In this document: positions 6,053-37,578 of the stretch, piece after piece
How positions within the stretch are numbered: position 1 is the first letter of the stretch
Layout: each line of letters starts with the position of its first letter
IMG/VR virus record: IMGVR_UViG_3300028895_000250
From: a virus
Strand: one strand, 5' to 3'
DNA length: 37,578 nt
Made by a program: the position numbers and the translations under genes
Notes under the pieces: generated by a model
Told to the model about the DNA's origin: nothing
Databases searched by the model: none
Seen by the model: only the letters and a program-made list of their open reading frames with translations

Positions 6053-8143
6053 ATGCCAAAAGTAGACAGAAAAAAGCCTGACAAATTAAAGGTTTGCATA
6101 GAGCCGATTGCGATCAAATCGGACAACGGCAGCCGGGTAATCAAGGGCTATGCCTCTACCCCGACGGTTGATTCATATAACGAGATCGTCAAGCCGACGG
6201 CGTTCGCCAAGTATCTGCCGGACTTCAAAGAATACCCGGTAATGCTGGTCAATCATAGTTGGTTTGATATCCCCATTGGCCAGTTTGATGTCGTCGAAAT
6301 CCGCGACGACGGGCTGTACGTCGAGGCCACGGTATCGAAGACCGCAATGGGCGATGACGTCTGGACGCTCATCCAGGACGGTGTACTCAAGGCGTTCTCT
6401 ATCGGCTATTGGGTACACAAGTCCGAATACGACGACGACTCTAAGATTACCACACTGACCGAGATCGAGCTGGTTGAAATCTCTGTCGTCAATGTTCCCG
6501 CAAACCGTCAGGCGCTATTCGAAGCCGCCAAGTCTCGCGGCCTAAAGTCATTCGCAATCAATCAAACGAGTGAACCACCTAACAAAAAGGGGGCAGATAT
6601 GCCCGAACTGGACATCAAGCAAGAAGTAAAAAAAGCGGTCGACGATGAGGTTACGAACGCCACCGCAAAGGTAACGGAGGCGGTGAAGGTTACGCTTGAG
6701 CCGAAGATCGAGGACATCGAGGAAAAATTCCTGTCGATGATGACTGAGGCGAAGGAAGCCGCGAAAAACTGCGTCACGACCGCCGAACACAAAGAGTTGG
6801 TCGAAAAGCTGAAGGCCATCGAAGACGCCCAGCAAATCATCCACAATCGGCAACAGAAAATCCTCGCCGGGCAGACAAAAGAGGTCGTCGTCCCGGAAAA
6901 CGGCATCGAGGATATGGCCATCGACCACCCCTATGGCAAGGCGTATGGCGCTGCGTTGACGCTGCCTGAATGTATGCTCGATCAGAGCAAGGATGCCATC
7001 AACGAATGGCGGCAGGCACATGACGATTTGTGTCTGCTGAATCACCTGATGGGTGCCAAGTTCGGGCGGATGTACAAAGGCCCGCAGACGCTCAAGTCGT
7101 TCGGTCGCTACAAAGACCTGACAGATCAAATCTTCGGCAAGGCAATGTCTGCAACCGGGACTGGTTACGGTGACGAATGGGTGCCGACCGAAATGTCCGC
7201 ACAGTTAACAGAGTTGGTCGAAGCCAAAGCAGTCATCGCCAGCCAATTCCCCGTCGTTCCGATGCCGACCAATCCCTGGGATATCCCCTACAAGGGCGGC
7301 CACGTAACGATCTACATCTACGACGAACCGACGGTGGACTTTGCCACCGAGATCAGTCGTTCGACGCCGACCACCGGCAAGAACACACTGACCGCAAAGG
7401 GTTTTGCTGCGGCTACTGTCGTATCGAAGGACGCCACCGAAGACTCGCTGATTGCCATCCTGCCGATGGTCCGGGATGATCTTGCTCAGACGATGGCCCG
7501 TGAATGGGATAACGCCTACATCAACGGCGATACTTCCGCGACTCACCGCGACACTCAGCATTCGATGAACGAGACCACCGATATCCGCAAGGCCTTTGAC
7601 GGCCTACGGCATCAAGCCAATGCGGACAGCAAGGAATACGATTGCCAGACGGTGCTCGGCCCCAACTCCGCCGATTGGGAAGCTGCCGACATCGTCATGG
7701 TTCGGAAGCTGATGGGTGCCAGCGGTGCACCGGAAATGGTCAACGATATGTTCCTGGCCTTGTCTCTGGACAATTTCTACGAAGCATGGCTGTGGGATGA
7801 AGTCAAGACCGTGGACAAGTTCGGCCCGATGGCTGCTACCATTGTCAAGGGCAGTCTGCCGTACATCTTCGGCATTCCCATTCTGACATCTTCGTACATC
7901 CGCACAGACTACAACTCGACCGGCCTCTATGATGCGTCTGGGAAGACAACCAGTCTGTGTCTGATGGTCAACAAAAAGGCGTGGGTCTCCGGGTCACGTC
8001 GGGCGATCACCATCGAAACCGATCCCAACATCCTAACTCAGCAAACGGTCGTCGTCGCTACTGCCCGCCGGGCATTCAAGCTCATTCGCGCGGCATCCAC
8101 CGAATACTCGACCGTCGCGGGGATCAACATCCCGGTGCTGTAA
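6053..8143 (+). CDS. Prohead protease (HK97 S78/U35-like) - coiled-coil scaffold - HK97-fold major capsid protein, single ORF
   Basis: Protease motifs are in aa ~20-165 (VNHSW, AFSIGYW, ISVVNVPAN). An E/K-rich coiled coil spans aa ~185-290. The C-terminal ~400 aa is HK97-type capsid-like (GDEWVPTEMSAQL...). RBS AAAGGAAG. Confidence 0.88.
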   Translation: MPKVDRKKPDKLKVCIEPIAIKSDNGSRVIKGYASTPTVDSYNEIVKPTAFAKYLPDFKEYPVMLVNHSWFDIPIGQFDVVEIRDDGLYVEATVSKTAMGDDVWTLIQDGVLKAFSIGYWVHKSEYDDDSKITTLTEIELVEISVVNVPANRQALFEAAKSRGLKSFAINQTSEPPNKKGADMPELDIKQEVKKAVDDEVTNATAKVTEAVKVTLEPKIEDIEEKFLSMMTEAKEAAKNCVTTAEHKELVEKLKAIEDAQQIIHNRQQKILAGQTKEVVVPENGIEDMAIDHPYGKAYGAALTLPECMLDQSKDAINEWRQAHDDLCLLNHLMGAKFGRMYKGPQTLKSFGRYKDLTDQIFGKAMSATGTGYGDEWVPTEMSAQLTELVEAKAVIASQFPVVPMPTNPWDIPYKGGHVTIYIYDEPTVDFATEISRSTPTTGKNTLTAKGFAAATVVSKDATEDSLIAILPMVRDDLAQTMAREWDNAYINGDTSATHRDTQHSMNETTDIRKAFDGLRHQANADSKEYDCQTVLGPNSADWEAADIVMVRKLMGASGAPEMVNDMFLALSLDNFYEAWLWDEVKTVDKFGPMAATIVKGSLPYIFGIPILTSSYIRTDYNSTGLYDASGKTTSLCLMVNKKAWVSGSRRAITIETDPNILTQQTVVVATARRAFKLIRAASTEYSTVAGINIPVL

Positions 8144-10083: not shown

Positions 10084-10662
10084 ATGGCGCGCAAGCTATT
10101 TACAGTCGATGAGGTCAAGCCGTTTCTCGATCTGGCGGGCGGCCCGCAGGACACCACGCAGGATGAGTTGCTTAAAATCCTGATCGAAGGCGCTACGGCG
10201 TGGATTGAGAAATACTGCGCCCAGACGTTTGAGTCCGGCGGGATATCGTATTCCGAAACCTACGACGGCGACAACGGGACGGTGCTGTATCTGAATCATC
10301 GCCCGGTGATATCGGTTTCATCTGTGGTTATTACCGACTCTGCGGACGTTGACGATACGATCCCCTCGACGGACTACGAACTGTACGAGACTGTCGGCAA
10401 GATAGTCCTGACCGAAGGGGATAGCTTTCTCAAGGGCGATCTGAACGTGGCGATCAGCTACGTCGCGGGAGAGTCTACCCTGCCCGCCGATGTCAAGCTG
10501 GCCGGGATGAAGCTGGTGCGCTGGCATTATCGCAAGTGGAACGATGACCGGGACGGCATATCGTCGGTCTCTGTCGGTGATATCACAACCAACTACGAAT
10601 CCGGTGTGCCTGCCGAGATCACTCAGGCCCTGGCACCACACCGAAACGTGATGTTTGGATGA
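10084..10662 (+). CDS. Head-tail connector/adaptor (gp6-like)
   Basis: N-terminus VDEVKPFLDLAG...DELLKILIEGATAWIEKYC is typical of the phage gp6-like head-tail connector family. Position is after the capsid genes. Confidence 0.75.
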   Translation: MARKLFTVDEVKPFLDLAGGPQDTTQDELLKILIEGATAWIEKYCAQTFESGGISYSETYDGDNGTVLYLNHRPVISVSSVVITDSADVDDTIPSTDYELYETVGKIVLTEGDSFLKGDLNVAISYVAGESTLPADVKLAGMKLVRWHYRKWNDDRDGISSVSVGDITTNYESGVPAEITQALAPHRNVMFG

Positions 10663-11140
10663 TTATGTGTTCGAGCTTGATCTGTCAATTGAGGGGAACA
10701 AAAAAGAATCGGTGAAGCTCGCCCGGTTTGGCAAAGAAAAGATACCCAATCTTAAACGAGGGATCGACAAAGCCACGCTGCGGCTTGAACGAACGATCAA
10801 AAAGAAAAAGCTCTCCGGGCAGTTGCTGAATGTCGGAAGGGGGAGGCATGGAGGGCATCTTCGGGCGTCTTTTCATTCTGTAGCAGCGCGGTATCAAGCT
10901 GGAGTGGGAATATATGGACTTGTTGGAAGTAACGCCGTTTACGCTCGAATCCACGAGGTCGGCGGAATCATCCGAGCAAAGAACGCCAAATATCTCCACT
11001 TCAAAACAAGGGATGGTCACTGGCATAAGGTAAAAGAGGTTAAGATCAAGCCGAAACGCTACGCCGAGTCGGCAATGCGCGAAGACCGCCGGGGCATTGC
11101 GAAGGATATTATAACCGAAGTTATGAGGCCGCTTAGATGA
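10655..11140 (+). CDS. HK97 gp10-like / virion morphogenesis (head closure or tail completion) protein
   Basis: Motif GGHLRASF...SNAVYARIHEVGG resembles the HK97 gp10 / tail-S families. TTG start overlaps the previous stop. Confidence 0.6.
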   Translation: MDDYVFELDLSIEGNKKESVKLARFGKEKIPNLKRGIDKATLRLERTIKKKKLSGQLLNVGRGRHGGHLRASFHSVAARYQAGVGIYGLVGSNAVYARIHEVGGIIRAKNAKYLHFKTRDGHWHKVKEVKIKPKRYAESAMREDRRGIAKDIITEVMRPLR

Positions 11141-11562
11141 GCGTCAGGGATACCATACTGGCAAATCTCAAGACGGGGCTGGAATCGATCAGCTCCGTCA
11201 AATACGTCACCCGCGATCTACAGGAATATCCGAGCAAGTTAAAGCAATGGTCTCCGGCGCTATTTATCGCCGACGACGGCGGCGAAGAAATCAACAACTA
11301 CTGCGACGGCGACAAAGCACAGATTACGATATTGATTCTGATCTACGGTTACTATCACCGGGCGGAGGATATGACTGCGGGATTCAGTACCTTTCTGGAG
11401 GCCGTAGTCGATAAAATCTATGCGCCGATATCTCTCGGCTCAAACGTCCGCGACTGTACCGTGGTGTCCGTCAACCCCATCGTTTCGATACCCAAAGAAA
11501 ACGCCACCGAATTCGAGATGCACCTCCAAATCAAATACTGGCGAGCTCTGGGAGGTGCGTAA
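11137..11562 (+). CDS. Neck/tail completion protein (141 aa)
   Basis: Call rests on gene order. N-terminus VRDTILANLKTGLESISSVKYV is reminiscent of tail-terminator-type proteins. Confidence 0.45.
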   Translation: MSVRDTILANLKTGLESISSVKYVTRDLQEYPSKLKQWSPALFIADDGGEEINNYCDGDKAQITILILIYGYYHRAEDMTAGFSTFLEAVVDKIYAPISLGSNVRDCTVVSVNPIVSIPKENATEFEMHLQIKYWRALGGA

Positions 11563-19840: not shown

Positions 19841-22800
19841 ATGGAAAAGAAATTGGGTAAAATAGTTGTTGGCTTGATCGGGGTTATTGCCCTCATCTGG
19901 GTTGTCACGTTTATGGCAGCAGAGTGTCGGGCTGACTTTCTCGGTGTGTACAGTTTGACGGAGTACATTATTGCCCCGGTTCATTCAATTGACAGTGATG
20001 GTAACGAGGTTGATGCTGATTCTGCTCATGTCCTTGTGTGGGAAGAAGGCGTTGGAGACAATACTGTTACTTATTCTGCGCGAACTTCAGATATGACCGC
20101 TGATTGGATTGCTGAATATACTTATGCCGGTGGAGTGAAGGATTATTATTTCCGGGATCAAGCACAGGATATTGATGCTGGGCAATTGCATGGCCAATAT
20201 GTAATGAAAATCAAGTTGTTTGCCGGTGGCGAAGGTTATTCCACCATCCATACTTTTGATGTTACTTCCACGGGTGAACGTGAAGTTGATGTCAATTCAA
20301 TGAGTACCAGTACTAATGCAGCCGATAGTCTTGAATTACGTATGTTACGACATGATCAAGATGATATTACCGACAAACTTGCTGCGATGGGCTTGGCTGA
20401 TTCCGCTGCAGCTATTTGGGGTGATACTGCCGATTCCCCCGGTGAGCGTGAGCGCTTGTTGATTGATGGCGGTGACGCGGCGGATCTTGAGGCCAAAGTA
20501 GACACTGCCGTTTGGGAATCTCGTACCGTTTATAACGAGGTGACGGTAGAAGATTGGGCCAACCATTTTTATCAGTATGATGATGGTGTGTTGTTTGATG
20601 GGTGTGAAGGCATTAGTGGTTGGACTTTTGAGCATGGTGGTAATGGTAGACTAACTGGTGAAGCTACACATACAACTCAGGGTGATTCTGCGATAAGTAT
20701 TTGGACTGGTGACGGAGATACGGCAATTGTTTACAAGGAATTGCTCACGTATGACAATGGTAGATATCGTATTCCGTACATATCAACTATTACATTTGAT
20801 CTCTTTATTGACACGGCAACATGTTATCGTTCCCATAGAGTTGCCGCGTATGCGGATAGTACATCTTCGCTGCATTACCTCAAGGTTAAAATGTGCCGGG
20901 ATTTAGAGGACGGGCCATTTGATATTACCACGAGCGGTTTTTTGCAATACATCTATCTCGATCAAGCCCTTGTCTCCGGCTGGAACCATTTAATTGTCCC
21001 CATGCAGGGGATGGCTGAGATTGGCGATGCCGATTCTAGTGATGTTGGCTTACAAAACAAGTATATCGGTTTTGAAATTGGGGTTGATGGTGCAAACGAT
21101 TCTGTCCGTGTTGTGATTGATAATATTCGCTTTAACGTACGTTCACGCGCCAAACTGATCTTTCGTTACGATGATGGGTTGCAATCGCAATATACACGAG
21201 GATGGCCGTTACATCGTAAATATCACCAACACGCTACATATGCAGTCAGGGGAAATAATTTTACCGGCGTTGATTCCAATATATACATGCTGACAAATCA
21301 TTTAGATGTATTGTATGCAGAGGGCAACGATATTATCAATCACGGGTACACCGGATTGTATTTGTACGACGTTACAGACTCCACGGCACGGAGAAATATT
21401 GACCAGGGACAGCAAGCGTTGAACGACCACGGGTATCAGCGAGCATCAGATGTGTTTGCGTACCCCAGCAACGGTATTGACACTATTGGACTGAGGATAT
21501 TAAAGGAAAATCATAAATTCGCTTGTGGTGGCCGTAACTCGATCCATCATGGCCATGTTGATGTGATTACAGATCCAACCGCAGACGAATTATACAATTT
21601 CCCTTACGTGTACATGGAATATAGTGGATCGGAAAGCATGGACAAGTACCGTCGCATGGTTGACACCGCAATCTTACAGGGCAGTTTGTTAATCTTATCA
21701 ATGCACGAAATATGTAGTACGGATAGTGCAAATGGCTCTGACGCTACTTCCATATCTACAAATGTTGATTCACTTGATGCTTTTCTTAGTTATGTGTACG
21801 ACCGCAGGGCATTAATTGACGTTACTACCTTCTCTGAATACTTTGCTCATCAGCGTACATTCTCGGCGCAGCTAAACACGATTGAGAATAATACAGATTT
21901 GGCGAACGATTCGCTTGAGGTGCTGAATGAAAAAATAGATGCGATGCGAGATAGCCTACAGTATTTGGTGACGGGCGGCGGGGATTCAAATTCCACCACC
22001 GGCATCACCTACGCCGTCGAGCAAGCGGCGATCAATCTCGATAATGCATCCGGCACATTATCCAATGCACAAATTGACGATGATATCGAAGTTGATGTCA
22101 AGACCTGGGCCGGTACTCCGGCAGCAACAGCCGATGACGGATGGGTGACGGCAGTCGGTTTCAGTACACACAGTGCAGGGGATATATGGACGGTGGGTAC
22201 GCGAAGGCTGACCGAGCTGGATGAGGACAATACAACTATCGATCTTGACGGTTCGGCGGTCGGGTCTGTTTCAGGGAATGTAGACGGCAATGTCGCCGGA
22301 TCGGTCGGCTCAGTCACGGCAGGGGTAACTTTACGTGGCGATTCGTTGGGTACGTTAATGGGAGACGTTGATGATATTAAATCCAAAACCGACAATTTAC
22401 CCACCGATCCCGCTGACGATTCAGATATAGATGGTCAACTCGCAGCGATTCAGGCAGACCTTGATAATCCCAATCAGTATAAAGCCACAGGATTTTCAAC
22501 GCATGGCCCCGGCGATCCGTGGGATGTAGCAACCAGTGACCATACGACAATAGGCACGTTTGCGGAATTGTTGGAAGCTGACTCGACAAATATCGCAGCC
22601 ATTAAAGAGCGCACCGACAACCTGCCAGATGATCCCGCAGACGACAGCGATATAGATGGACAGCTTTCCGCGATTAATGCAAAGACGACGAATCTACCAA
22701 GTGACCCGGCGGATGACAGTGATATCGACGGACAACTGGCAACAATTCAAGCAGACCTCGATAATCCAAGTCAGTACATGGCAACCGGCTTCTCCACGTT

Positions 22801-23785
22801 CGACCCGGATGCTGATACCGTTGGTCTCGGTACTGGAACGTATACTGCGATTGCTAAAGAATCATCGTTATTCGATCCTGATGCAGACACTGTCGGCCTG
22901 GGGTCGGGAACATACGCAGCGCTGGTTGCCGGATCGTCGTCATGGGCGGACACGCTGCGGAATATTATGGAGGCGATATTCGACACCACGCTTAGTATAG
23001 CCCCGGATTCAACTGGCGGACTATTCGAGCGCCTCACCTGGATTGCTGAAAACATGGCATCAGCCGGTGCCGATTCAGGCACTATCCATCGGATTCTTGA
23101 GGATGAATTGAACGTCGCCCGCGATGCAACCAAATCAGATTACCAATCGACCACCGGTCCCGGCGCGATTCCGGTCCGGGTCTATGCCTACGATTCAACG
23201 AATGCGGTATCTGTTGCCGGGGTGCGGATCAACGTCAAGTTGGCTGACGGTACGCCGAAACATTATGATCTGACCGGCTCCGACGGCTGGGCAAATATGA
23301 CGCTGGCTGTCGGTGAACGGTACATCTATGCCGAGCATAACAACTACGACTTCACCACTCCGGCCTGTACGCTGACCGTGCCGACGGATAGTCTGCGAGA
23401 TACCGTCTATGCAACCGCCTTCGATCCCGGCGATCCCGGCGACGCCGACCTGAAACGAATCTACGGCTGGATCAAAAACGCGGGCGACGTAGCCCTCGAA
23501 GGTGCCATCGTTACGCTGACGCTGGACGTTCCCGGTGACACGATACCATACCAGACCGGTACCGGTGTAACAATTCACCGAACGGCGGTCCGAGACACGA
23601 CCGATGCCGACGGCTACTGGTCGCTGGACATCTACCCGGTCCTGAACGGTGACGGCACGGCGTTTATCACACCGGCGAGTAGCGAGTACCACTATCGGGC
23701 GACGTACGATAACAACTATCTCAGCCAGCACCAGAAAACATTCAGGCCGTCGGATACTACTGCGACGGCGATAACGAGCTTCTGA
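19841..23785 (+). CDS. Large tail fibre / receptor-binding protein with N-terminal hydrophobic anchor, CE4 polysaccharide deacetylase-like domain, repeat region and two prealbumin-like C-terminal domains
   Basis: N-terminal segment IVVGLIGVIALIWVVTFMAA. NodB-like motifs FRYDDG (21161..21178), INHGYTG, AYPSNG and LILSMHE. Repeats carry NLP.DPADDSDIDGQL. C-terminal domains include VRINVKLADGTP...TGSDGWANM and AIVTLTL...TDADGYWSL. Confidence 0.7.
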   Translation: MEKKLGKIVVGLIGVIALIWVVTFMAAECRADFLGVYSLTEYIIAPVHSIDSDGNEVDADSAHVLVWEEGVGDNTVTYSARTSDMTADWIAEYTYAGGVKDYYFRDQAQDIDAGQLHGQYVMKIKLFAGGEGYSTIHTFDVTSTGEREVDVNSMSTSTNAADSLELRMLRHDQDDITDKLAAMGLADSAAAIWGDTADSPGERERLLIDGGDAADLEAKVDTAVWESRTVYNEVTVEDWANHFYQYDDGVLFDGCEGISGWTFEHGGNGRLTGEATHTTQGDSAISIWTGDGDTAIVYKELLTYDNGRYRIPYISTITFDLFIDTATCYRSHRVAAYADSTSSLHYLKVKMCRDLEDGPFDITTSGFLQYIYLDQALVSGWNHLIVPMQGMAEIGDADSSDVGLQNKYIGFEIGVDGANDSVRVVIDNIRFNVRSRAKLIFRYDDGLQSQYTRGWPLHRKYHQHATYAVRGNNFTGVDSNIYMLTNHLDVLYAEGNDIINHGYTGLYLYDVTDSTARRNIDQGQQALNDHGYQRASDVFAYPSNGIDTIGLRILKENHKFACGGRNSIHHGHVDVITDPTADELYNFPYVYMEYSGSESMDKYRRMVDTAILQGSLLILSMHEICSTDSANGSDATSISTNVDSLDAFLSYVYDRRALIDVTTFSEYFAHQRTFSAQLNTIENNTDLANDSLEVLNEKIDAMRDSLQYLVTGGGDSNSTTGITYAVEQAAINLDNASGTLSNAQIDDDIEVDVKTWAGTPAATADDGWVTAVGFSTHSAGDIWTVGTRRLTELDEDNTTIDLDGSAVGSVSGNVDGNVAGSVGSVTAGVTLRGDSLGTLMGDVDDIKSKTDNLPTDPADDSDIDGQLAAIQADLDNPNQYKATGFSTHGPGDPWDVATSDHTTIGTFAELLEADSTNIAAIKERTDNLPDDPADDSDIDGQLSAINAKTTNLPSDPADDSDIDGQLATIQADLDNPSQYMATGFSTFDPDADTVGLGTGTYTAIAKESSLFDPDADTVGLGSGTYAALVAGSSSWADTLRNIMEAIFDTTLSIAPDSTGGLFERLTWIAENMASAGADSGTIHRILEDELNVARDATKSDYQSTTGPGAIPVRVYAYDSTNAVSVAGVRINVKLADGTPKHYDLTGSDGWANMTLAVGERYIYAEHNNYDFTTPACTLTVPTDSLRDTVYATAFDPGDPGDADLKRIYGWIKNAGDVALEGAIVTLTLDVPGDTIPYQTGTGVTIHRTAVRDTTDADGYWSLDIYPVLNGDGTAFITPASSEYHYRATYDNNYLSQHQKTFRPSDTTATAITSF

Positions 23786-24930: not shown

Positions 24931-25743
24931 ATGCGGGCGCTCGTACTCTCAGGCGGCGGCGCGAAGGGTGCGTTCGAGGCCGGGGTTGTCCTTGAGCTGG
25001 CGAAGGCCGGGCGGGATTACGATCTGGTCGTCGGTGTATCGACCGGCGCGCTGTCGGCGTTGGTGCTTGGCCAGGATAGCAACTTTCTGACCGCAGCCAA
25101 ACGCCTGTGGGCGCATTATGAGGCCATCAAAGGCCCGAAGGATATCTACAAGTCGCGCTCGCTGTGGGGCAAACTCCGGGGCGGCCTGTACTCACTTAAG
25201 CCGTTGCGCAAAAAGATCGTGGCCGAGGTCGCCCGCGACGGTTTCAGCCGGACTACCCGCGTCGGTGTGGTGAATCTGGAAACCGGGGAATTCAAACTGG
25301 TCGGCCCGATGGATATCTGTTTCGTCGATTACGTGCTGGCGTCGTGCAGTTTCCCGCCATACTTCCCGCCGGTTAAGATTTGGGGCCGTCCGTACATGGA
25401 CGGAGGCCTCCGCAACATCGCCCCGGTTCAGGCAGCGATTGACGCTGGTGCCACGACAATCGATCTGGTGCTGGCCTCGCCGAGCAATTTGGATTCGTGG
25501 AAACCGTCGGGCTGGACCTGGGATATCGCCGGGCGGGCCGTTTCGATTGCCGTCAACGAGGTCTATCGCGGCGATCTGGCCAACGGACACCCGGTAGATG
25601 TCCAGAAATTTGAGCCGTTGCCGGATGAGTATCGGGAAATGTGGGGAGGGGAATTCATCGGCACGCTGGAATTCGATCCGACAAAAATCCAAAGCGCAAT
25701 GATATATGGGCAGGCGGTCGCCCAAAAGCTCCTGTCTCCGTAG
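24931..25743 (+). CDS. Patatin-like phospholipase (270 aa), no signal peptide
   Basis: GGGAKG oxyanion loop at aa 8-13, GVSTG nucleophile elbow (Ser37) and MDGGL catalytic Asp (Asp157). All three patatin hallmarks are intact. Confidence 0.85.
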   Translation: MRALVLSGGGAKGAFEAGVVLELAKAGRDYDLVVGVSTGALSALVLGQDSNFLTAAKRLWAHYEAIKGPKDIYKSRSLWGKLRGGLYSLKPLRKKIVAEVARDGFSRTTRVGVVNLETGEFKLVGPMDICFVDYVLASCSFPPYFPPVKIWGRPYMDGGLRNIAPVQAAIDAGATTIDLVLASPSNLDSWKPSGWTWDIAGRAVSIAVNEVYRGDLANGHPVDVQKFEPLPDEYREMWGGEFIGTLEFDPTKIQSAMIYGQAVAQKLLSP

Positions 25744-25800: not shown

Positions 25801-25995
25801 TTCTAATATGCGTTCTAATATAGCCGAAATATATTGGTGTAACGTGGTAAATATTGGTACAATTCTTACCCCGTTCTATTGTGGACATTTGCAGTATAAC
25901 TGGTTGTCGTGTATACGGATAAATTAAAAGCGGGTGATGGGAGTCGAACCCGATGTTTCCCGTGAAACACAATCACTTACGGCGCGTTCTAATAT
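25801..25995. other. Candidate attP region with arm-type direct repeats
   Basis: TTCTAATAT at 25801..25809, 25813..25821 and 25987..25995 (12-mer GCGTTCTAATAT at 25810 and 25984). ATATTGGT at 25831 and 25851. AT-rich, and flanks a tRNA-like core next to int. Confidence 0.6.
25929..25951 (-). other. tRNA 3'-end-like fragment (T-loop plus acceptor strand); candidate attP core
   Basis: Minus strand reads GGGTTCGACTCCCATCACCCGCT, which is GTTCGAnTCC-type T-loop followed by a 7-nt acceptor strand and a U discriminator. The upstream half does not complete a T stem or anticodon arm, so it is not a full tRNA. Confidence 0.55.
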
Positions 25996-27049
25996 TTGAT
26001 TGCCCGGGCAGCTTATTAATGGCTTTCTGAAGGTCGGATTGATCTAAATGGCTGTACTGCAATGTTGTTTCGTATCGCTTGTGTCGGGCCAGCTTTTGCA
26101 CTATCGGCAGCGACACACCCGCCCGCACCAGCCGTGTGCAGTAGGTATGGCGCAGGGTATGGATATTGGCACCGTCAATTCCAAATTTCCGATATAACGC
26201 GATTACGCGGCGATACCAGACCTCAGAGAAATACAGGGGATGATTGGTGCCTTTGTCGAAGATATATCGCCCAGCGCGTTCTAATGACCTCAGGACGGCA
26301 GATAATTGGGGTGCCAGCGGTATGGTTTCCGGTGTCCGGCCTTTGGGGGCAAAGCCGGTTTTGGCCGCGATAGTGATTGTCATCTGATCGAAGTTGATAT
26401 CAGACCATTCCAGGTGGATGATTTCCGCCCGGCGAAGTCCGGCCAGATAGCCGATCATGCAAAACTCGCGGTAGGGCGAAGGGAATTTGGTTTCGATGAT
26501 CTTGATTTCTTTTTCGGACAGGGCGCGGATCTGCGGCGTGGCGTTTTTCTTCGGCAGTTTCACTTTCGCCATCGGATTGCGATTGAGCCGACCCTCTTGT
26601 ACCTGCACATTCAGGAAATGGCGTAGCACTTCAAGGTATCGGCGCACGGTAGTTGCTGTACAGGATGAACCTTTCCAGCTTTTGAATTGGTTGATGGACG
26701 CAGGTGTCAGGTCTGATAGGCACAAAATCCCCCGGCTCACGAAATACTGCCGGAGAATTTCTACCCGGCTGTAGTTTGATTTGTGGGTGCTGGCTGTGTT
26801 TTCGGCCGCGGACCGTTTCAGGTAGTCGGTCAAAAGTGATGCCAGTTGACTATCATCTTTCGGCTTATCCTTTTTGTGGGCCTGCTTCCACTGATTAAAG
26901 TATTTGCGGGCTTCCTTTTGCGTGACGATCTTGCGGCCCAGGTCGGCATAGGCGGAAAGTGATATCCATTTATATTTTCCGTCGATATACTCCACGACAT
27001 AGGGATAGACCTTGCCGGCGCCTGTTTTCTTCCAGTGGAGGGATGCCAT
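25973..27049 (-). CDS. int: Tyrosine recombinase / phage integrase
   Basis: LAGLRRAEI (Arg box), HTLRHTYCTRLV (H-x-x-R), TTLQYSHL (catalytic Tyr). N-terminal SAM-like domain. Confidence 0.92.
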   Translation of the reverse strand: MASLHWKKTGAGKVYPYVVEYIDGKYKWISLSAYADLGRKIVTQKEARKYFNQWKQAHKKDKPKDDSQLASLLTDYLKRSAAENTASTHKSNYSRVEILRQYFVSRGILCLSDLTPASINQFKSWKGSSCTATTVRRYLEVLRHFLNVQVQEGRLNRNPMAKVKLPKKNATPQIRALSEKEIKIIETKFPSPYREFCMIGYLAGLRRAEIIHLEWSDINFDQMTITIAAKTGFAPKGRTPETIPLAPQLSAVLRSLERAGRYIFDKGTNHPLYFSEVWYRRVIALYRKFGIDGANIHTLRHTYCTRLVRAGVSLPIVQKLARHKRYETTLQYSHLDQSDLQKAINKLPGQSNIRTRRK

Positions 27050-27681: not shown

Positions 27682-28071
27682 TTAGCCACCACCTTGTTTC
27701 TCCTTTGTATCGAACGCCGCACGAGCCAATTGATCGAAGACCTCATCGTCGGTGAGGTCGTACTTGTCGAGCATCCCGGCCTTACGGAAGTCGGCGATCA
27801 TGGCGTTGCGAAGTAGCTCTTTATACTGATCCGGCGGGTCTTCGCCGGTGAATAGCCAATCGAGGGTCTTGCCGTAGAGCCGGGCGGCCTTCATGGCGAA
27901 ATTGATCTGCGGGTAAGTATCGCCCTTGATCCACGAGCCGACGGTAGTTTCAGAAACCGACTCATCTTCAGAGCACAGCATTTCGGTGAACCGCTTGTTG
28001 ATCCCACCGGCAATGGCGTCCCGAATCTCCGCCAATCGCTTCCCTATCTCTAAAGTCTCCTGATTTTGCAT
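27682..28071 (-). CDS. XRE/CI-like HTH repressor (129 aa)
   Basis: HTH region SETTVGSWIKGDTYPQINFAMKAARLYGKTLDWLFTGE. Divergent from the early operon. The longer track ORF (to 28434) was rejected because its extension crosses the promoter region and overlaps two plus-strand genes. Confidence 0.8.
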   Translation of the reverse strand: MQNQETLEIGKRLAEIRDAIAGGINKRFTEMLCSEDESVSETTVGSWIKGDTYPQINFAMKAARLYGKTLDWLFTGEDPPDQYKELLRNAMIADFRKAGMLDKYDLTDDEVFDQLARAAFDTKEKQGGG

Positions 28072-28375: not shown

Positions 28376-28552
28376 ATGCCACCGCTGCTGAACAAAAAAC
28401 AGACGGCCAAGCATCTGGGGATCGGCCTGACCACCCTTTATCGCTGGATGAAGTCTGGCGTATTCAGGGTCCCGATGATAGTCGGCACTGGCCGGTACGA
28501 CCAGACCGACGTGGACGCCTGGGTTGAATCTCGAAAGCGTGGTGGCCAATGA
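28376..28552 (+). CDS. Excisionase-family (HTH_17/AlpA-like) DNA-binding protein (58 aa); not in the ORF track
   Basis: Hand translation: MPPLLNKKQTAKHLGIGLTTLYRWMKSGVFRVPMIVGTGRYDQTDVDAWVESRKRGGQ. This is the typical Xis/AlpA pattern. Confidence 0.7.
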   Translation: MPPLLNKKQTAKHLGIGLTTLYRWMKSGVFRVPMIVGTGRYDQTDVDAWVESRKRGGQ

Positions 28553-29033
28553 ATCACCTCCGGCTAAAATTCCTGCCGCTGGCGGTAGGGCTTGAGGTTT
28601 GAAGGTCCGAGCCGGAGGACCGGCGGCAGAAAATATTACGGAGCATTAAATGATTTGTTTGAGTGTAAATAGTAAACCTGCGGAAGGCAACGGCTTGGGG
28701 GGCTTTTCCGCACTGTTGGAAGTTGTCAGGAAAGGAGGCCGCTATGCGGCGGAGGGTCTAAAACCGCCTATACCATCACAGAAACGGTGCAAAAAATATC
28801 TATATGCTAAGGTTTATCCGAACAGCCCCGGCACGAACGGCTCCCGCCGGGGCGTTGAAAAATTCCGCCGACCGACCTCAGGTTGTGTAGACTTCCCCCC
28901 TATAGGAACTCCGCACGGTAACTGCATTAGTCGGTCGGTTTTAAATATCGCATCCTCCCAGGGTGTAACTGGCGGCGGGGTCGCACCGCATACCGGCGGC
29001 CCCGCTATTCATTCGAAAACGAAAGGAGAATCT
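28553..29033 (+). ncRNA. Candidate structured untranslated region / non-coding RNA in the immediate-early transcript
   Basis: 480 bp with no convincing ORF, since the track ORF from 28650 translates to Gly/Pro/Arg/Ser-rich junk. GC-rich with at least 6 perfect 6-10 bp stems, including a pseudoknot-compatible pair (28557..28565/28610..28618 and 28573..28582/28620..28629). Confidence 0.35.
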
Positions 29034-29240
29034 ATGACCAATAACGAACTAACGCACGTCCATTGGGACGGGCAACATGGCGTCAAATACAAAACGGCGG
29101 ACAGTGATCGGGTGTATCTGTTGGCCGTTCGGCCTGCAATGGGTCGGTTGATCATGAATGCCTGGAATACCAAGAACAACAACCTACTCGACGACGTAAT
29201 GAGCGTGCCTTTGAGGGGGGGAACATGTGCAACTTCCTGA
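29034..29240 (+). CDS. Small hypothetical early protein (68 aa)
   Basis: Strong RBS AAAGGAGA 5 nt before the ATG. Protein-like sequence begins only at this point in the long track ORF. Confidence 0.6.
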   Translation: MTNNELTHVHWDGQHGVKYKTADSDRVYLLAVRPAMGRLIMNAWNTKNNNLLDDVMSVPLRGGTCATS

Positions 29241-30046
29241 GCGGCTACTGCACAGAAAAACGGGGCTTGCGGTGTTCGCCGTTTGTAGATAGTCACTCCG
29301 ATCAAATAATCATGTTCGGGGATACTGACCTTGATAGCAAGCTACCGCTGGAAATACTTAAGTGGGAAATTACACCGCCGAGAGATTGGGATAAGTTTTT
29401 TGATTCCTCCGCATGGTATTTCCGCATCGATCAAGACGAAATTCCCTCTTGGGCCGATCCTAAAATGGCTGAACATGATGTGCGAGAATATTTACAGAAA
29501 TTACTTGATGATTGCCCTGATATCGGCGACGAAATTAAAATACTCGACGGTCGGTACATTGCGCTACGCGGTGATGGCGTGGTGACAAAATGCAGCGACG
29601 CTACCTACATTAAATACATTCCGAACAAGGCGACCATCAACGATGCTGGGTCTGCGACCATCAAGTATGCTGGGGCTGCGACCATCAACGATGCTGGGTA
29701 TGCGACCATCAAGTATGCTGGGTCTGCGACCATCAAGTATGCTGGGGCTGCGACCATCAACGATGCTGGGTATGCGACCATCAACGATGCTGGGTATGCG
29801 ACCATCAAGTATGCTGGGGCTGCGACCATCAACGATGCTGGGTATGCGACCATCAACGATGCTGGGTATGCGACCATCAAGTATGCTGGGTATGCGACCA
29901 TCAACGATGCTGGGTATGCGACCATCAACGATGCTGGGTATGCGACCATCAAGTATGCTGGGTATGCGACCATCAACGATGCTGGGTATGCGACCATCGA
30001 CGACAAAAAACATATAAACGGTGAACCAATTGAGGTCACAAAATAA
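29225..30046 (+). CDS. Octapeptide tandem-repeat protein (273 aa): unique N-terminal domain plus ~15.6 x ATI(ND/KY)AG(Y/S/A) repeats; beta-solenoid-like
   Basis: A 135-aa non-repetitive N-terminus runs in frame into the 24-bp repeats, with a stop 40 nt after the array. The repeat resembles the AGYGSTxT octapeptide of ice-nucleation proteins. Confidence 0.6.
   Translation: MCNFLSGYCTEKRGLRCSPFVDSHSDQIIMFGDTDLDSKLPLEILKWEITPPRDWDKFFDSSAWYFRIDQDEIPSWADPKMAEHDVREYLQKLLDDCPDIGDEIKILDGRYIALRGDGVVTKCSDATYIKYIPNKATINDAGSATIKYAGAATINDAGYATIKYAGSATIKYAGAATINDAGYATINDAGYATIKYAGAATINDAGYATINDAGYATIKYAGYATINDAGYATINDAGYATIKYAGYATINDAGYATIDDKKHINGEPIEVTK
29630..30004 (+). repeat. 24-bp tandem repeat array, ~15.6 copies, two unit types, 72-bp higher-order period at the 3' end
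   Basis: Units are GCGACCATCAACGATGCTGGGTAT and GCGACCATCAAGTATGCTGGG(TAT/TCT/GCT). 29822..29893 is identical to 29894..29965. Confidence 0.95.
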
Positions 30047-30086
30047 AACCAGCCCGGTGGTGGCCGGGCCGGATGGAGCAAAAACA

Positions 30087-30407
30087 ATGTGTACGCAATA
30101 TAGTACGAAGGAAGCACACGCCGTGGCAACAAAAAAAGATGAGACCATCGGCTTTAGTCTCGCCTACGATTGGGCAATAGCGCACAACTTCACGCTGTAC
30201 ACCCTGTTGGATGACGTTGGGGCGCGGGAGTTTGCCGAACTGTGCTGTATCGCTGATACTCCGCTGGATCGGGTATTACAGTTTCCAGCGAACGACCACA
30301 AAACGGCATTAATCAAACTGGCCGAAGCCGCCGGAATGACCGTCGAATTGTTCTGTGAACTCAACTACAAGTGGATGTTCCGGAATTATGAGATCATGGA
30401 AATCTAA
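30087..30407 (+). CDS. Hypothetical early protein (106 aa)
   Basis: GGAG lies 7 nt before ATG 30087. The 30021 start in the track lies inside the previous gene. Confidence 0.55.
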   Translation: MCTQYSTKEAHAVATKKDETIGFSLAYDWAIAHNFTLYTLLDDVGAREFAELCCIADTPLDRVLQFPANDHKTALIKLAEAAGMTVELFCELNYKWMFRNYEIMEI

Positions 30408-31444
30408 TGCCTAAGTGGCCAAACTACCAACAATTATTCGAGGGTGAAGATATGAGTCCCAACGATAAGCAGCAGATATTGACTCATTCGCGCCTGTCTT
30501 GTTTTCGGGCGTGTCCCAAAAAACATTTCTGGCGATACGAAGTCGGGTTGCGGCCAGACGAAGACTCTCATCCGTTGCGCATCGGTCAGATGTTTCATCG
30601 AGCACTTGAGGCAGATTCCCGCGGCGAGAACATTGAAAATGCTATGGAGGGGATCTCCGATGATTTGTACGATTTGGCATTGGTTGCAGCCATGTTCACC
30701 GGATACAAACGACGGTGGGCAGATGAGCCGCATATTGAAACTGTTGATGTTGAAAAAGCATTTGGTATCCCGCTGGTCAATCCAGACACCGGCGCTTCTA
30801 CTCCAATATGGCAGCTTGCCGGTATTATTGATCGAATTGTCCGCCTGTCGGATGGTCGTATTGCGCTTATGGAACACAAAACAACTTCCCGCGATTTTTC
30901 GTCGGGAGCCGACTACTGGACAAAACTACATCTGGATCAACAGCTATCAATCTATATCGTTGCCGCGCGTGCAATGGGGTACGATATCCAGACGGTACTC
31001 TATGACGTAACCCGGAGACCATCGCTGCGGCCACTTAAAGCAACTCCAGAGGATAAGCGCAAATACAAAAAAGACGGCAGTTTGTACGCCAATCAGCGGG
31101 ATCAAGACGAAACGCCAGCGGAATTTGCGGCAAGGGTTGCTATCGATATAGAAAGTCGACCTGAACACTACTATACCCGAATTGAAATAGCCCGGCCAGA
31201 GCAAGACATCAAGGATTGCCAAGCCGAAGTTTGGCAGCAGCAACTATCAATCCGTGAAGCTCAACGATCCGGGCGCTGGTTTAAAAACCCGGAATCGTGT
31301 TTCAGTTTGAATGGGACGTGTGAATACATTGGGCTTTGTCAGTCTGGAATGTCAGCCGGTGAAGTGCCGCCGGGATTTACCATTGTCGAAGATAAACATC
31401 CGGAATTAAGCCGGATAGATGCCGATGCGGGGCAAGCCGCATAA
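30407..31444 (+). CDS. PD-(D/E)XK exonuclease, RecB/Cas4-like with Cys cluster
   Basis: N-terminal CFRACPKK. Core motifs DRIV...LMEHKTT (D...ExK) and QQLSIY (QxxxY). C-terminal Cys cluster CFSLNGTCEYIGLC. Confidence 0.8.
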   Translation: MPKWPNYQQLFEGEDMSPNDKQQILTHSRLSCFRACPKKHFWRYEVGLRPDEDSHPLRIGQMFHRALEADSRGENIENAMEGISDDLYDLALVAAMFTGYKRRWADEPHIETVDVEKAFGIPLVNPDTGASTPIWQLAGIIDRIVRLSDGRIALMEHKTTSRDFSSGADYWTKLHLDQQLSIYIVAARAMGYDIQTVLYDVTRRPSLRPLKATPEDKRKYKKDGSLYANQRDQDETPAEFAARVAIDIESRPEHYYTRIEIARPEQDIKDCQAEVWQQQLSIREAQRSGRWFKNPESCFSLNGTCEYIGLCQSGMSAGEVPPGFTIVEDKHPELSRIDADAGQAA

Positions 31445-31454
31445 GGAGATTGCA

Positions 31455-32291
31455 ATGTCTACTAGTACAGCGACAAAGAAAGCACCGCCGCCGCCGAAGG
31501 CGAAAAACGGCAACGGCGCACCCAGCCAACCGACTGCCAATACCTCATTTTCAGTGTCAGATGGGGTTATCGGTGGGGCCAACAGGATTTTAGTTTATGG
31601 TCCAGGGGGTATCGGAAAGAGTACGCTCGCATCGTTGGCGCCGAACCCGGTGTTTATTGATGTCGAGAACGGCACCAGAAAATTGAACGTACACCGAGTT
31701 GATGGCGTATCGACGTTTGCCGATCTTCGTGAATGCTTACGGTCTGATGTTCTCAACGAATTTCAGACAGTAGTAATCGACAGTGGAACGAAAGCTGAAG
31801 AATTGGCTGTTGCTCATACCCTGTCGACCGTCCCCCACGAAAAAGGAAAGAAAGTTGATCGGGTCGAGGACTATGGATTCGGCAAAGGATATCAGCACAT
31901 TTACGAAACATTCCTCCTGCTGCTGGCGGATCTGGACATTTTAATTCGCCGCGGGAAAAACGTGGTGTTAATCGCCCATGATTGTGTGGCCGACGTACCG
32001 AATCCGGTCGGCGAAGATTATATTCGCTATGAACCACATTTTCAATCGCCGAAGTCTGGCAAGGCGTCAGTTCGCCATCGTGTTATTCAGTGGGCCGACT
32101 ACGTGCTGTTTTTGGGGTACGACGTAATCTCCGAAGACGGTAAAGGCAAGGGCGCCGGGACGCGGACGATTTTCACCGTCGAACGTCCAGATCATATTGC
32201 AAAATCACGAACAAAAATCGAGCCGCTGGCGTTTGAAAACGAAGTTGATGACGCTATCTGGCAGGCCATCATAGGAGGAAATCAGCAATGA
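31455..32291 (+). CDS. Sak4-like / AAA_24 RecA-fold ATPase (recombination mediator)
   Basis: AAGGAG RBS. Walker A YGPGGIGKST and Walker B VVIDSG. Sits between the exonuclease and the SSB. Confidence 0.75.
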   Translation: MSTSTATKKAPPPPKAKNGNGAPSQPTANTSFSVSDGVIGGANRILVYGPGGIGKSTLASLAPNPVFIDVENGTRKLNVHRVDGVSTFADLRECLRSDVLNEFQTVVIDSGTKAEELAVAHTLSTVPHEKGKKVDRVEDYGFGKGYQHIYETFLLLLADLDILIRRGKNVVLIAHDCVADVPNPVGEDYIRYEPHFQSPKSGKASVRHRVIQWADYVLFLGYDVISEDGKGKGAGTRTIFTVERPDHIAKSRTKIEPLAFENEVDDAIWQAIIGGNQQ

Positions 32292-35208: not shown

Positions 35209-36006
35209 GTGGCAAGGAAACGAATGATCGATCCGGGGATCTGGCGTAACAAAGGAATACTCCGGGTTTCCAGAGACGCACGGCTATTATTTATCGGCCT
35301 GATCACATACGCAGACGATTGTGGGTATGGCGACGCCGATCCGATGGCTCTCCGTGCGTCGATATTTCCAGGTGACAGTGACGTGTCCGATACGGACGTG
35401 GAACGGTACCGTGACGAACTCGTTACGGCCAAGCTGGTCGAAATATCCAACGATCTGTACAGGTTGCCGGGATGGTCAAATTTCCAGAAGATACGTTCTG
35501 ACTACAAGTTAGAAGAAAAGTATAAACAGAGGTGGAACGGACCCGTTACGGACCCGTTACGGCACAGTAACGGACCCGAACCACAATACAATACAAGTAA
35601 AGACAATAAAGACAATACAAGTAAAGAGAAGTGTCGGTCGGCAAAGCCGACCTTCATCATCCCCCAAAACTGGCTTCCTGTTTTTGAAATCCTTTCGTCG
35701 ATAGACGCCCGGAGTTACCGGACTCTCAAATTTGACCAGGACTGGATCGACAGACTGGATGAATTCGCCCAAAAGCTGGATGGCGCTGAAGCAGTGACCG
35801 AGGAAGCGAAGAAATTCAAACACTGGCTCATCGGTCGACTCAGTAACGGCGATGAAAAACGAGATAAGCGACACAACCCCAGGGCGCGGTTTTTAAATAC
35901 CTGGTTGGGCAATGCGGTGAAGTACAAACTGGAAAACGCGGGCGAGGAACAAACGCCGGAGCAGGCTGCGGCTGCGGCGATAGAACGGAATAAGGCCCAT
36001 GTCTGA
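35209..36006 (+). CDS. Replication initiator / replisome organiser-like protein with origin embedded in its linker
   Basis: N-terminal winged-helix-like region (RLLFIGLITYADDCGYG). A low-complexity linker is encoded by the iterons and the AT-rich tract, as in lambda O. Confidence 0.6.
   Translation: MARKRMIDPGIWRNKGILRVSRDARLLFIGLITYADDCGYGDADPMALRASIFPGDSDVSDTDVERYRDELVTAKLVEISNDLYRLPGWSNFQKIRSDYKLEEKYKQRWNGPVTDPLRHSNGPEPQYNTSKDNKDNTSKEKCRSAKPTFIIPQNWLPVFEILSSIDARSYRTLKFDQDWIDRLDEFAQKLDGAEAVTEEAKKFKHWLIGRLSNGDEKRDKRHNPRARFLNTWLGNAVKYKLENAGEEQTPEQAAAAAIERNKAHV
35537..35630. promoter_or_regulatory. Candidate origin of replication: 4 x 11-bp iterons plus AT-rich tract with a 16-bp direct repeat
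   Basis: ACGGACCCGTT at 35537 and 35548, ACGGCACAGTA at 35559, ACGGACCCGAA at 35570. ACAATACAAGTAAAGA at 35588..35603 and 35612..35627. Confidence 0.6.
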
Positions 36007-37122: not shown

Positions 37123-37572
37123 ATGATTGAATTTTTCATCCCAGGTCCGCCGGTTGCACAACAGCGGGCGAAGACGAGAGTAGCCAAAGTTCCGGGCGGC
37201 GGCGTCCGGGTGCTCGGTAAGTATGACCCAGAGAAATGCAAGAACTTCAAAAGCCACGTGGCCGATGTTGCATTTCAGAAAGTCACCGAATGTTACGGGC
37301 CGGACGTACCCATCGCCCTGGACATGGTATTTTTCGTACAGCGACCGGCGTCAGTCACCATCAAGAAACGGCCACTGCCGATCAAAAAACCCGATTGGGA
37401 TAACTTCGGCAAGGGGCCGTCCGATGCAATGGAGACAATCGTCTACCATAACGACAGCCAGGTAGTCGATTGTCGAGTGAGAAAATTCTACGCCGATAAT
37501 CATCCGGTCGGCGCACTGTTGAAAATCGTAGAAGTCAAACCGCAGGAGGTACAAAATGAATTTTCGCTGTGA
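37123..37572 (+). CDS. rusA: RusA-family Holliday junction resolvase
   Basis: PPVAQQRAK...KPDWDNFGKGPSDAME...YHNDSQV is the RusA signature (KPDxDN...D). The gene spans the contig overlap. Confidence 0.85.
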   Translation: MIEFFIPGPPVAQQRAKTRVAKVPGGGVRVLGKYDPEKCKNFKSHVADVAFQKVTECYGPDVPIALDMVFFVQRPASVTIKKRPLPIKKPDWDNFGKGPSDAMETIVYHNDSQVVDCRVRKFYADNHPVGALLKIVEVKPQEVQNEFSL

Positions 37573-37578
37573 TCTGGA
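37435..37578. repeat. Terminal exact direct repeat, copy 2 (identical to 1..144)
   Basis: Compared base by base with 1..144. Confidence 0.97.

Follow-up and report, generated by a model that had tools for sequence, protein, structure and literature searches.

The DNA analysed here is a viral contig of 37,578 nucleotides, IMG/VR virus record IMGVR_UViG_3300028895_000250, the whole of which is referred to below as the window. Nucleotides 1-144 are identical to 37435-37578, and this terminal overlap indicates a circular assembly and hence the complete genome of a temperate phage, about 37.4 kb long. The subject of this work is a gene on the plus strand at 29225..30046, found in the list of open reading frames (ORFs). 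It encodes a repeat protein of 273 aa, with a computed isoelectric point (pI) of 4.62 and a net charge of -13, in which an N-terminal domain is followed by a long array of almost identical octapeptides. The parts of the gene are as follows.

29213..29221, plus strand: Shine-Dalgarno-like GAGGGGGGG, read from the sequence; 3 nt separate its end from the ATG
29225..30046, plus strand: coding sequence of the repeat protein (ORF list, 34 full-length homologs, identical protein on a 37578-bp contig); its ATG overlaps the end of the upstream ORF
29225..29533, plus strand: N-terminal globular domain (N-domain), residues 1-103, from alignments and the AlphaFold2 (AF2) model
29534..29629, plus strand: degenerate first strands, residues 104-135, entering the repeat rod (AF2 strands 104-107, 110-113, 119-123 and 128-131)
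29630..29989, plus strand: 15 canonical 24-bp units A-T-I-(ND or KY)-A-G-(Y, S or A), from Tandem Repeats Finder (TRF) and in-register cutting
29990..30046, plus strand: degenerate 16th unit, C-terminal tail ATIDDKKHINGEPIEVTK and stop codon, from in-register cutting; the tail has a predicted local distance difference test (pLDDT) score of about 50 in the AF2 model

The start at ATG 29225 is supported by the family described below, because nearly all of the family matches begin at profile position 1, which corresponds to residue 1.

TRF finds a single strong array (29630..30003, period 24, 15.6 copies, 90% matches, score 601). Cut in the register of the ORF, units 1-5 are ATINDAGS, ATIKYAGA, ATINDAGY, ATIKYAGS and ATIKYAGA, units 6-10 are ATINDAGY, ATINDAGY, ATIKYAGA, ATINDAGY and ATINDAGY, and units 11-15 are ATIKYAGY, ATINDAGY, ATINDAGY, ATIKYAGY and ATINDAGY, followed by a degenerate 16th unit, ATIDDKKH. 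An earlier, sequence-only reading of this DNA had described about 15.6 near-identical 24-bp repeats and listed the order of the ND and KY units, and both agree exactly with the units given here. It had also confined the variation to a block at codons 4-5 and to codon 8, and indeed only four nucleotide positions vary among the 15 units. The ND/KY switch is an adjacent dinucleotide, CG versus GT (AAC GAT versus AAG TAT), while codon 8 is TAT, TCT or GCT and varies in its first two bases. With up to 3 mismatches allowed, the consensus unit has 12 matches, all within the array (shuffled sequences give an expectation of 0), and there is no copy of the unit in the window outside 29630-29989. At the same threshold no template copy of a diversity-generating retroelement (a variable repeat/template repeat pair) is present in the window. 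No reverse transcriptase was found in the ORFs scanned, a scan that missed some window ORFs, or in the gene tables of identical contigs, and Rfam and tRNA scans of the window were empty.

The array has a second, longer period. TRF also scores 29630..30003 at period 72 (5.2 copies, 97% matches), and the mean mismatch per unit is 0.58 at a lag of 3 units, versus about 2.0-2.4 at lags that are not multiples of 3. KY is found at all of units 2, 5, 8, 11 and 14, and ND at all of units 3, 6, 9, 12 and 15, with units 1, 4, 7, 10 and 13 being ND, KY, ND, ND and ND. The sequence-only reading had placed a 72-bp period at the end of the array; the period is present, but the lag-3 pattern spans the whole array. 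The same reading went on to propose a structural turn of 24 residues, with ND and KY on separate faces. This does not fit the other arrays of the family, whose super-periods have lags of 5/10, 7 or 9-10 units. Because the super-periods of the relatives differ, the 72-bp period is better seen as a history of block duplication.

It is worth asking whether the array is a protein repeat at all. Five of the six frames are open across it (not all six, as had been thought: the remaining frame, on the minus strand, has 15 stops), and near-perfect repeats assemble poorly, so that two other readings have to be weighed, an artefact of assembly and a non-coding repeat in the DNA (iterons, for instance) that lies in an open frame by chance. 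A search of 5.8 billion proteins found 34 relatives of the same full-length architecture, with E down to 1e-57, and all of them retain the octapeptide A-T-I-[K/Q/E]-[N/Y/D/H]-A-G-[S/Y]. The scaffold codons of the window array are GCG ACC ATC .. .. GCT GGG in 15 of the 15 units, while contigs carrying relatives have GCA ACG ATT (L001 and L002), GCT ACA ATT (L003) or GCC ACA ATT (L005). The residues are thus the same and the synonymous codons divergent, so that selection acts on the protein and not on a DNA motif, which confirms that the region is protein-coding in the frame first proposed. Origin iterons are probably located elsewhere, at 35537-35627 on the plus strand, where two short tandem repeats with periods of 11 and 15 lie inside the replication initiator gene.

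Many arrays use one codon per scaffold position throughout, and a few have a minor synonymous variant. It follows that the units are homogenised within each genome, that is, by concerted evolution. Across the family, residues 4 and 5 vary independently (KY, KN, QY, QN, EY, EN, KD, QD and ED), and positions 7 and 8 vary too; the variable positions in the octapeptide are a feature of the whole family. A crude substitution count finds no synonymous change in the window array.

The same phage, at 37.2-37.6 kb, occurs in at least eight assemblies, and the array is present in every one. The cluster at 90% identity that contains the window protein has members of 273, 257, 249, 225, 193 and 177 aa, with 15, 13, 12, 9, 5 and 3 units respectively. 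The N-domain and the tail are identical in all six, and deletion of whole units from the 15-unit array is enough to give each of the shorter ones. Three contigs compared over 11.6-20.8 kb around the gene have 3 to about 8 mismatches, and the 200-nt flanks on either side of the array are identical in 7/7 contigs compared. The unit number therefore differs between near-identical genomes. The sequence-only reading had warned that the copy number might be mis-assembled, a warning that was apt given the 3-15 units found in assemblies of the same phage. There are three reasons to think the length variation real at least in part. Each length variant has private 141-mers (34-394 of them); the 3-unit and 5-unit arrays, at 86 and 134 bp, fit within the k-mer length of 141 and are thus spanned by single k-mers; and two assemblers gave the 3-unit form, while the 9-unit form came from three samples. 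The 15 units may be a lower bound, the perfectly periodic stretch of 168 bp being below the cycle-forming length at k = 141. Although the copy number does differ between short-read assemblies, an artefact or a chance open frame is, on the evidence of codons and k-mers, the least credible of the explanations considered here, and can be treated as unlikely in the extreme.

The AF2 model of the full protein, made with 33 sequences, has a pLDDT of 90.4 and a predicted template modelling (pTM) score of 0.78. From about residue 104, each unit is predicted to form one 4-residue strand (T-I-x-x) and a 4-residue turn (A-G-x-A), with pLDDT 88-97. The N-domain is predicted with pLDDT 84 as β5-10, β14-17, α24-30, α34-37, β44-50, β65-68 and α79-95. 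Foldseek searches of the PDB with the full and N-domain models gave no match at E ≤ 0.001, and in BFVD one uncharacterised Siphoviridae fragment was matched. The low-probability Foldseek matches are mostly parallel β-helices, these being Ag43, fusolisin, SufD, TBCC, an ice-binding protein and a tailspike-like enzyme. At the sequence level, the array matches phrog_430 (gp5 hub/lysozyme, E 2.7e-4) and phrog_9992 (baseplate, E 2e-6), and the Gp5_trimer_C family scores 17.8-31.0 bits in the relatives, just reaching its cut-off (30.9 bits) at 31.0 bits in relative P0007. The window protein has no match to the T4 gp5 β-helix (PF22178 / PF06715) at E ≤ 1, scores 10.9 bits against the 5-fold β-flower PF21785 (cut-off 38 bits; relatives ≤22.8 bits), and has no match to the pentapeptide repeat PF00805. 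The β-solenoid suggested by the sequence-only reading is thus a plausible fold for the repeats, given the confident model with a strand per unit, the weak similarity to gp5 and the low-scoring β-helix matches; its geometry is taken from the prediction.

Two other ideas raised from the sequence fare less well. The octapeptide recalls the ice-nucleation proteins, which are very large outer-membrane proteins with an AGY-type motif and an 8-residue sub-period. Kinship with them is unlikely, there being no Pfam match to them at E ≤ 1 in the window protein and its relatives, or at E ≤ 0.1 in Bbp36, a Bordetella phage protein described below. The other idea is a modular reader resembling the transcription activator-like effectors (TALEs), in which the order of ND and KY would act as a code, each unit reading one element of a target made of nucleic acid or polymer. 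The units are near-identical and their variation is limited to codons 4, 5 and 8, as it is in every relative, and two-type, "binary" arrays are also found in Bbp36 of phage BPP-1 and in Porphyromonas phage005b. However, TAL repeats have 33-35 aa (about 34, versus 8 here), are helical, and carry their variable pair at positions 12 and 13, whereas the window unit is a short strand plus a turn and not a helical hairpin, and there is no TAL match. Across the family, residues 4 and 5 vary independently, and positions 7 and 8 are variable as well. The charge of the array in the window protein is not like that of a DNA-binding protein. Moreover, near-identical genomes have 3-15 units, so that a fixed target would be lost or changed with no compensating change. 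We regard a code of this kind as very improbable.

The N-domain, of about 110 residues, defines a very large family. A word-indexed search with its profile found 116 proteins, and an exhaustive HMMER search found 2456 cluster representatives at 50% identity, 1411 of them with E ≤ 1e-10, nearly all of which align from protein residue 1. The start is Met-Cys in 253 of the 274 proteins fetched, and we therefore refer to the Met-Cys family. Among 237 non-redundant members the conservation is 0.99 for Ser6, 1.00 for His24, 1.00 for Glu48, 0.98 for Asp69 and 1.00 for Trp76; Ser23 (before His24) and Pro51 are also conserved. The window protein, which is the first row of the alignments, carries Cys2, Ser6, His24, Glu48, Asp69 and Trp76 and aligns from residue 1. 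At position 46, which is Arg in 91% of relatives, it has Lys. The invariant Cys immediately after the initiator Met suggests a functional N-terminal cysteine in the mature protein, as a nucleophile or metal ligand. This suggestion comes from general knowledge of N-terminal-nucleophile enzymes, to which no similarity of the N-domain was found.

The arrays behind this N-domain have many different periods. In 269 proteins, the period is 9 residues in 95, 8 in 60, 7 in 11, 5 in 2 and 11 in 1. A nine-residue example is SSKVGxMxx and a seven-residue example GTVTDNY, and the five-residue arrays are true pentapeptide repeats, with PF00805 scoring 73 bits in member P0061. The N-domain is thus the constant part and the rod is interchangeable. 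At the other end of the protein, 161 of 224 family members have at least two basic residues among the last 8.

The PHROG matches of the window protein are confined to the repeats, and Pfam, NCBIfam and PADLOC scans of the protein and its relatives gave sub-threshold, repeat-driven matches only. Matches to RsmI, CspD and BigA were judged spurious and compositional. PF26918, listed for P0001, is a faint Ig_Eae match, and TadA, the best PDB sequence match (E 0.2), was rejected, its alignment placing "MC" on a zinc-motif cysteine. A megablast search of the 8 kb around the gene against 50,697 phage records gave no match. When IMG/VR, JGI metagenome contigs and GTDB genomes were scanned for close relatives, with exact DNA and with back-translated sequence, the outcome was at most a single short match. 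With a degenerate DNA pattern spanning three units, 6 stretches were matched on 5 IMG/VR contigs, while in 185,579 species genomes the matches were all spurious and of low complexity. The literature on DUF7666, octapeptide repeats and pentapeptide anti-defence yielded nothing on the Met-Cys family.

Some large phages carry the gene twice. Contig L002 has two Met-Cys/octapeptide paralogs (6671-7432 and 10488-11465), as does IMGVR_UViG_3300028840_003271 (loci L012 and L014). These contigs are 120 kb and 170 kb, with arrays of 14 + 23 units in one and 18 + 25 in the other. JGI sample 3300028840 yielded both the 170-kb phage with its two paralogs and a 9-unit variant of the window phage (L022), so that several carriers of the family share one environment.

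The genes around the repeat gene are as follows.

1751-25743: terminase, portal, protease-capsid fusion and tail genes
25973-27049, minus strand: integrase
27682..28071, minus strand: CI-like repressor, divergent from the early operon (PHROG repressor matches to its helix-turn-helix (HTH) part; called as 129 aa in identical contigs)
28376..28552, plus strand: small HTH protein (excisionase/AlpA-type), start of the rightward operon (phrog_66, E 1e-11; PF12728 HTH_17 in identical contigs)
30049..30072, minus strand: GC-rich hairpin just past the stop of the repeat gene, with 9 pairs, 8 of them GC, and a T-run on the minus strand
30087..30407, plus strand: ORF of 106 aa between the repeat and exonuclease genes, with no family match
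30407..31444, plus strand: PD-(D/E)XK exonuclease (phrog_1218, E 4e-39; PF12705)
31419..32291, plus strand: Sak4-like / AAA_24 single-strand annealing protein (phrog_124, E 8e-33; PF13479)
35209-36006: replication initiator, downstream in the rightward operon

The gene lies after the divergent repressor and the HTH gene and before the exonuclease, Sak4-like and replication genes. The sequence-only reading had put it among the early genes, and the location bears this out; early expression is what we infer from the operon position. Comparable surroundings are seen elsewhere. In L001 the relative has an HTH gene and a fragment of an integrase as neighbours, with replication genes downstream; in L005 it is one gene upstream of Erf and SSB; and in L011 it is directly upstream of Erf and a replication initiator. 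In L002 and L003, which are large lytic phages, the relatives are found among dozens of small genes, once adjoining rIIB. Apart from the window, L005 and L011, every context examined places the gene among small early genes.

This position bears on the possibility that the array is an intertwined trimeric β-helix of the gp5/VgrG type, forming a needle-like structural or injected component. T4 gp5 likewise uses an 8-residue repeat, and the window protein resembles the C-terminal β-helix of gp5 and VgrG in having one strand per 8 residues and a weak profile similarity (the phrog_430 and phrog_9992 matches to the array, and the borderline Gp5_trimer_C score in P0007). It is also known that monomer AF2 models of obligate trimeric solenoids can mislead (PMC10584680). 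On the other side, gp5 belongs to the baseplate of the virion, has OB-fold and lysozyme domains and is an intertwined trimer, whereas the window protein has neither domain, lacks a Gp5_trimer_C match at E ≤ 1, and comes from a gene in the early operon, separated from the structural module (1751-25743) by about 3.5 kb and the integrase-repressor switch. The monomer model is confident, to judge by its pTM, and the arrays of relatives with periods of 5, 7 and 9 misfit the gp5 geometry. A needle therefore seems improbable.

The same position raises a more serious alternative, namely that the protein is an inhibitor of a host nuclease (for example RecBCD) or an accessory of the recombination module, comparable to Gam or Abc, with the acidic domain or the solenoid as a DNA mimic. 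In phage lambda, gam is found beside exo and bet; among pentapeptide solenoids, Qnr and MfpA mimic DNA. Here the gene is just upstream of exonuclease and annealing-protein genes, as it is in L005 and L011 and, analogously, for bbp36. The protein is acidic, the family N-domain has a median pI of 5.06, and some relatives have genuine pentapeptide repeats. It is this combination of position and acidity that suggests a Gam-like nuclease inhibitor as the main sub-rival. However, although the window protein shares with Qnr, MfpA and AlbG a short-period β-solenoid, its array has a period of 8 and not 5 and is not strongly acidic, its net charge being just -3. In the relatives the repeat parts have a median pI of 8.58, most of them being neutral to basic, so that DNA mimicry, which had been raised from the sequence, is weakly supported at best. 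In the large lytic phages the gene is found by rIIB or unannotated small genes and not by recombination genes, and the protein resembles none of Gam, Abc2, Ocr and ArdA in sequence or fold. On balance a nuclease inhibitor is rather unlikely, if easier to accept than a needle.

Several other features of the genome are worth recording. The hairpin at 30049-30072 scores as an intrinsic terminator on the minus strand only, though the neighbouring genes are all on the plus strand. Upstream of the repeat gene, a stretch of about 480 nt from the HTH gene to the ATG at 29034 (28790-29033, plus strand) has an unusually stable fold of -89.6 kcal/mol (z = -3.3). Several GC-rich hairpins form in it, and UUUU follows the one at about 28867-28940; gene callers place an ORF of 196 aa (28650-29240) over it. 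The folded stretch could be a leader, attenuator or antitermination element, and has no Rfam match. Between the tail genes and the integrase, which is the usual place for a lysogenic-conversion or defence "moron", there is a patatin-like phospholipase gene (24931-25743, plus strand; PF01734 in identical contigs; no PHROG match). In the tail region, a protein of 1314 aa (19841-23785, plus strand; no PHROG match) has a polysaccharide deacetylase domain, PF01522, which suggests a receptor-modifying tail enzyme. In the head module, a single ORF of 696 aa (6053-8143, plus strand) matches both a head maturation protease (residues ~18-250) and the major head protein, and is thus a protease-capsid fusion.

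By tblastn, two annotated phage genes are matched and no others. One is bbp36, which carries the annotation "variable region 2; VR2" in the Bordetella phages BPP-1, BMP-1 and BIP-1; the other codes for a hypothetical protein in Porphyromonas phage005b. The bbp36 match to the window protein has 33% identity and is mostly over the repeats. Each 24-bp element of VR2 combines a 19-bp repeat with a 5-bp spacer, of which there are three versions, and the isolates differ in having 9-20 copies; bbp36 is dispensable, and variation in VR2 is not linked to tropism (PMC2884959). In BPP-1 the VR2 units encode GTATAG followed by YR, ES or EK. The window array is similar in having a 24-bp octapeptide unit made of a constant part and a short switching block, inside an early gene, and in a copy number that differs between closely related genomes (3-15, versus 9-20 for VR2). 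The position of bbp36 is also that of the window gene: the repressor precedes it, and a single gene separates it from the exonuclease and annealing-protein genes downstream, although the exonucleases adjoining the two genes are not similar by BLASTP. The N-domains, in contrast, are different. That of Bbp36 is DUF7666 (PF24703, 41.7 bits), to which the window protein has no match, and hhalign of the Bbp36 N-domain against the window N-domain profile gives a probability of 0.2, that is, no relation. Bbp36 also has an extra C-terminal domain of about 45 aa.

The Porphyromonas phage005b protein has a third kind of N-domain, again with no relation to the window N-domain profile by hhalign. Phage contig L001 carries a homolog of it together with a Met-Cys family member, and the Porphyromonas protein and this homolog both have two-type octapeptide arrays (SATVRAWG/SATVEACD and NATVKAGG/NATVEAWG). 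A helical N-domain, a two-type array of this sort and a conserved C-terminal cap mark a second family of early phage proteins, seen at L001 1899-2603 and L017 3716-4489. Octapeptide arrays are thus found behind three kinds of N-domain, and the rod is therefore a module common to at least three unrelated N-domains in phage early regions. In short, the window gene shows the same repeat behaviour and the same position as VR2, but with a different, unannotated and very widespread N-domain.

The single functional precedent for arrays of this sort comes from the tetrapeptide-repeat protein gp54 of mycobacteriophage Tweety, in which defence-escape mutants alter the repeat number and so neutralise the Phrann gp29/gp30 system (PMC9262239). 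Its number of repeats is readily altered, and in this way its activity against a prophage-encoded defence is tuned. Tweety gp54 is thought to be non-essential (PMC2884959). Like the window protein, it is a non-structural phage protein with unique ends around a long array of near-identical short repeats. Unlike the octapeptide strand and turn, its unit is a 4-residue AAxx, considered intrinsically unstructured, and its host is actinobacterial; no sequence relationship was found, and none is claimed.

The analysis establishes the frame in which the array is translated, the family with its conserved residues, the anatomy of the repeats, the homogenisation within genomes, the differences in unit number between near-identical genomes and the genomic position. 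The explanation that we consider most likely, and hold with moderate confidence, is that the gene encodes a non-essential, tunable protein interacting with the host or with a defence system, being a VR2-like array on an early accessory gene. The product would be a cytoplasmic, non-structural accessory protein of a temperate phage, made from the early operon. Its first part would be a globular, acidic domain, some 100-110 residues long, that starts in the mature protein with the invariant cysteine. This cysteine is one of the conserved set Cys2, Ser6, His24, Arg/Lys46, Glu48, Asp69 and Trp76, and the domain would serve as the effector or bind a ligand, perhaps at a metal site or one of the N-terminal-nucleophile type. 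Behind it, the second part would be a rigid β-solenoid rod, in which A1, T2, I3, A6 and G7 form the scaffold and residues 4, 5 and 8 (and 7 in relatives) are free. The array would behave like VR2, with duplication, deletion and unequal exchange keeping the units identical within a genome, and by these processes the number and order of units would change much faster than the rest of the genome. The length and surface of the rod would then set the fit to a host or defence component, as the genetics of Tweety gp54 showed for that protein.

A more specific version is that the N-domain is a new small enzyme or covalent trap, with an N-terminal-nucleophile or metal site built on Cys2, His24, Glu48 and Asp69, and that the solenoid is a fast-evolving ruler and surface, altered as units are gained, lost and shuffled, that retargets it as host immune proteins change. 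This is possible, but we advance it only tentatively.

A number of points weigh against the proposal of a tunable interaction protein. Early timing, solenoid geometry, any role of Cys2 and the counter-defence function are all things that we infer. No experiment or homology ties the Met-Cys family to a defence system, and the search of PADLOC, a library of defence proteins, gave no match, as expected. The N-domain has no match in Pfam-A, NCBIfam, PADLOC or the PDB, by sequence, profile or Foldseek on the AF2 model, and since neither sequence nor fold leads from it to a protein of known function, any catalysis by Cys2 is conjectural. Neither Tweety gp54 nor Bbp36 is a homolog of the N-domain, and both serve as analogies. 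The AF2 result is a prediction for the monomer, giving strands, turns and confidence scores, and the protein may be a monomer or a gp5-like trimer. The contigs inspected appear to be short-read assemblies (MEGAHIT k141, Logan), and some of the copy numbers could be products of assembly. Finally, a crude count over ten arrays gives 75 nonsynonymous to 21 synonymous events (P = 0.40 versus neutrality); the variable codons are unconstrained, and positive or diversifying selection is not demonstrated. The structural and evolutionary description is thus well supported, and the function is not.

Hypervariable tandem repeats in phage early genes have been on record since VR2 of BPP-1 (2002-2004), without an explanation. 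The window links this phenomenon to a very large unannotated family, the 2456 clusters described above. It also provides a natural allelic series, in which the same phage has 3-15 units depending on the sample while the surroundings compared are almost unchanged, so that the question can be tested directly. Should the array prove not to act in counter-defence, this would still be a well-defined family that merits a Pfam entry and a structure. If the array is indeed a tunable counter-defence device, it would represent a new principle, the tuning of a folded solenoid by repeat length, together with a new fold or enzyme in phage anti-immunity. If the N-domain is an enzyme or trap directed by the solenoid, phages would have in this family a widespread counterpart, on their own side, of hypervariable recognition modules, and VR2 of the Bordetella phages would be explained as well.

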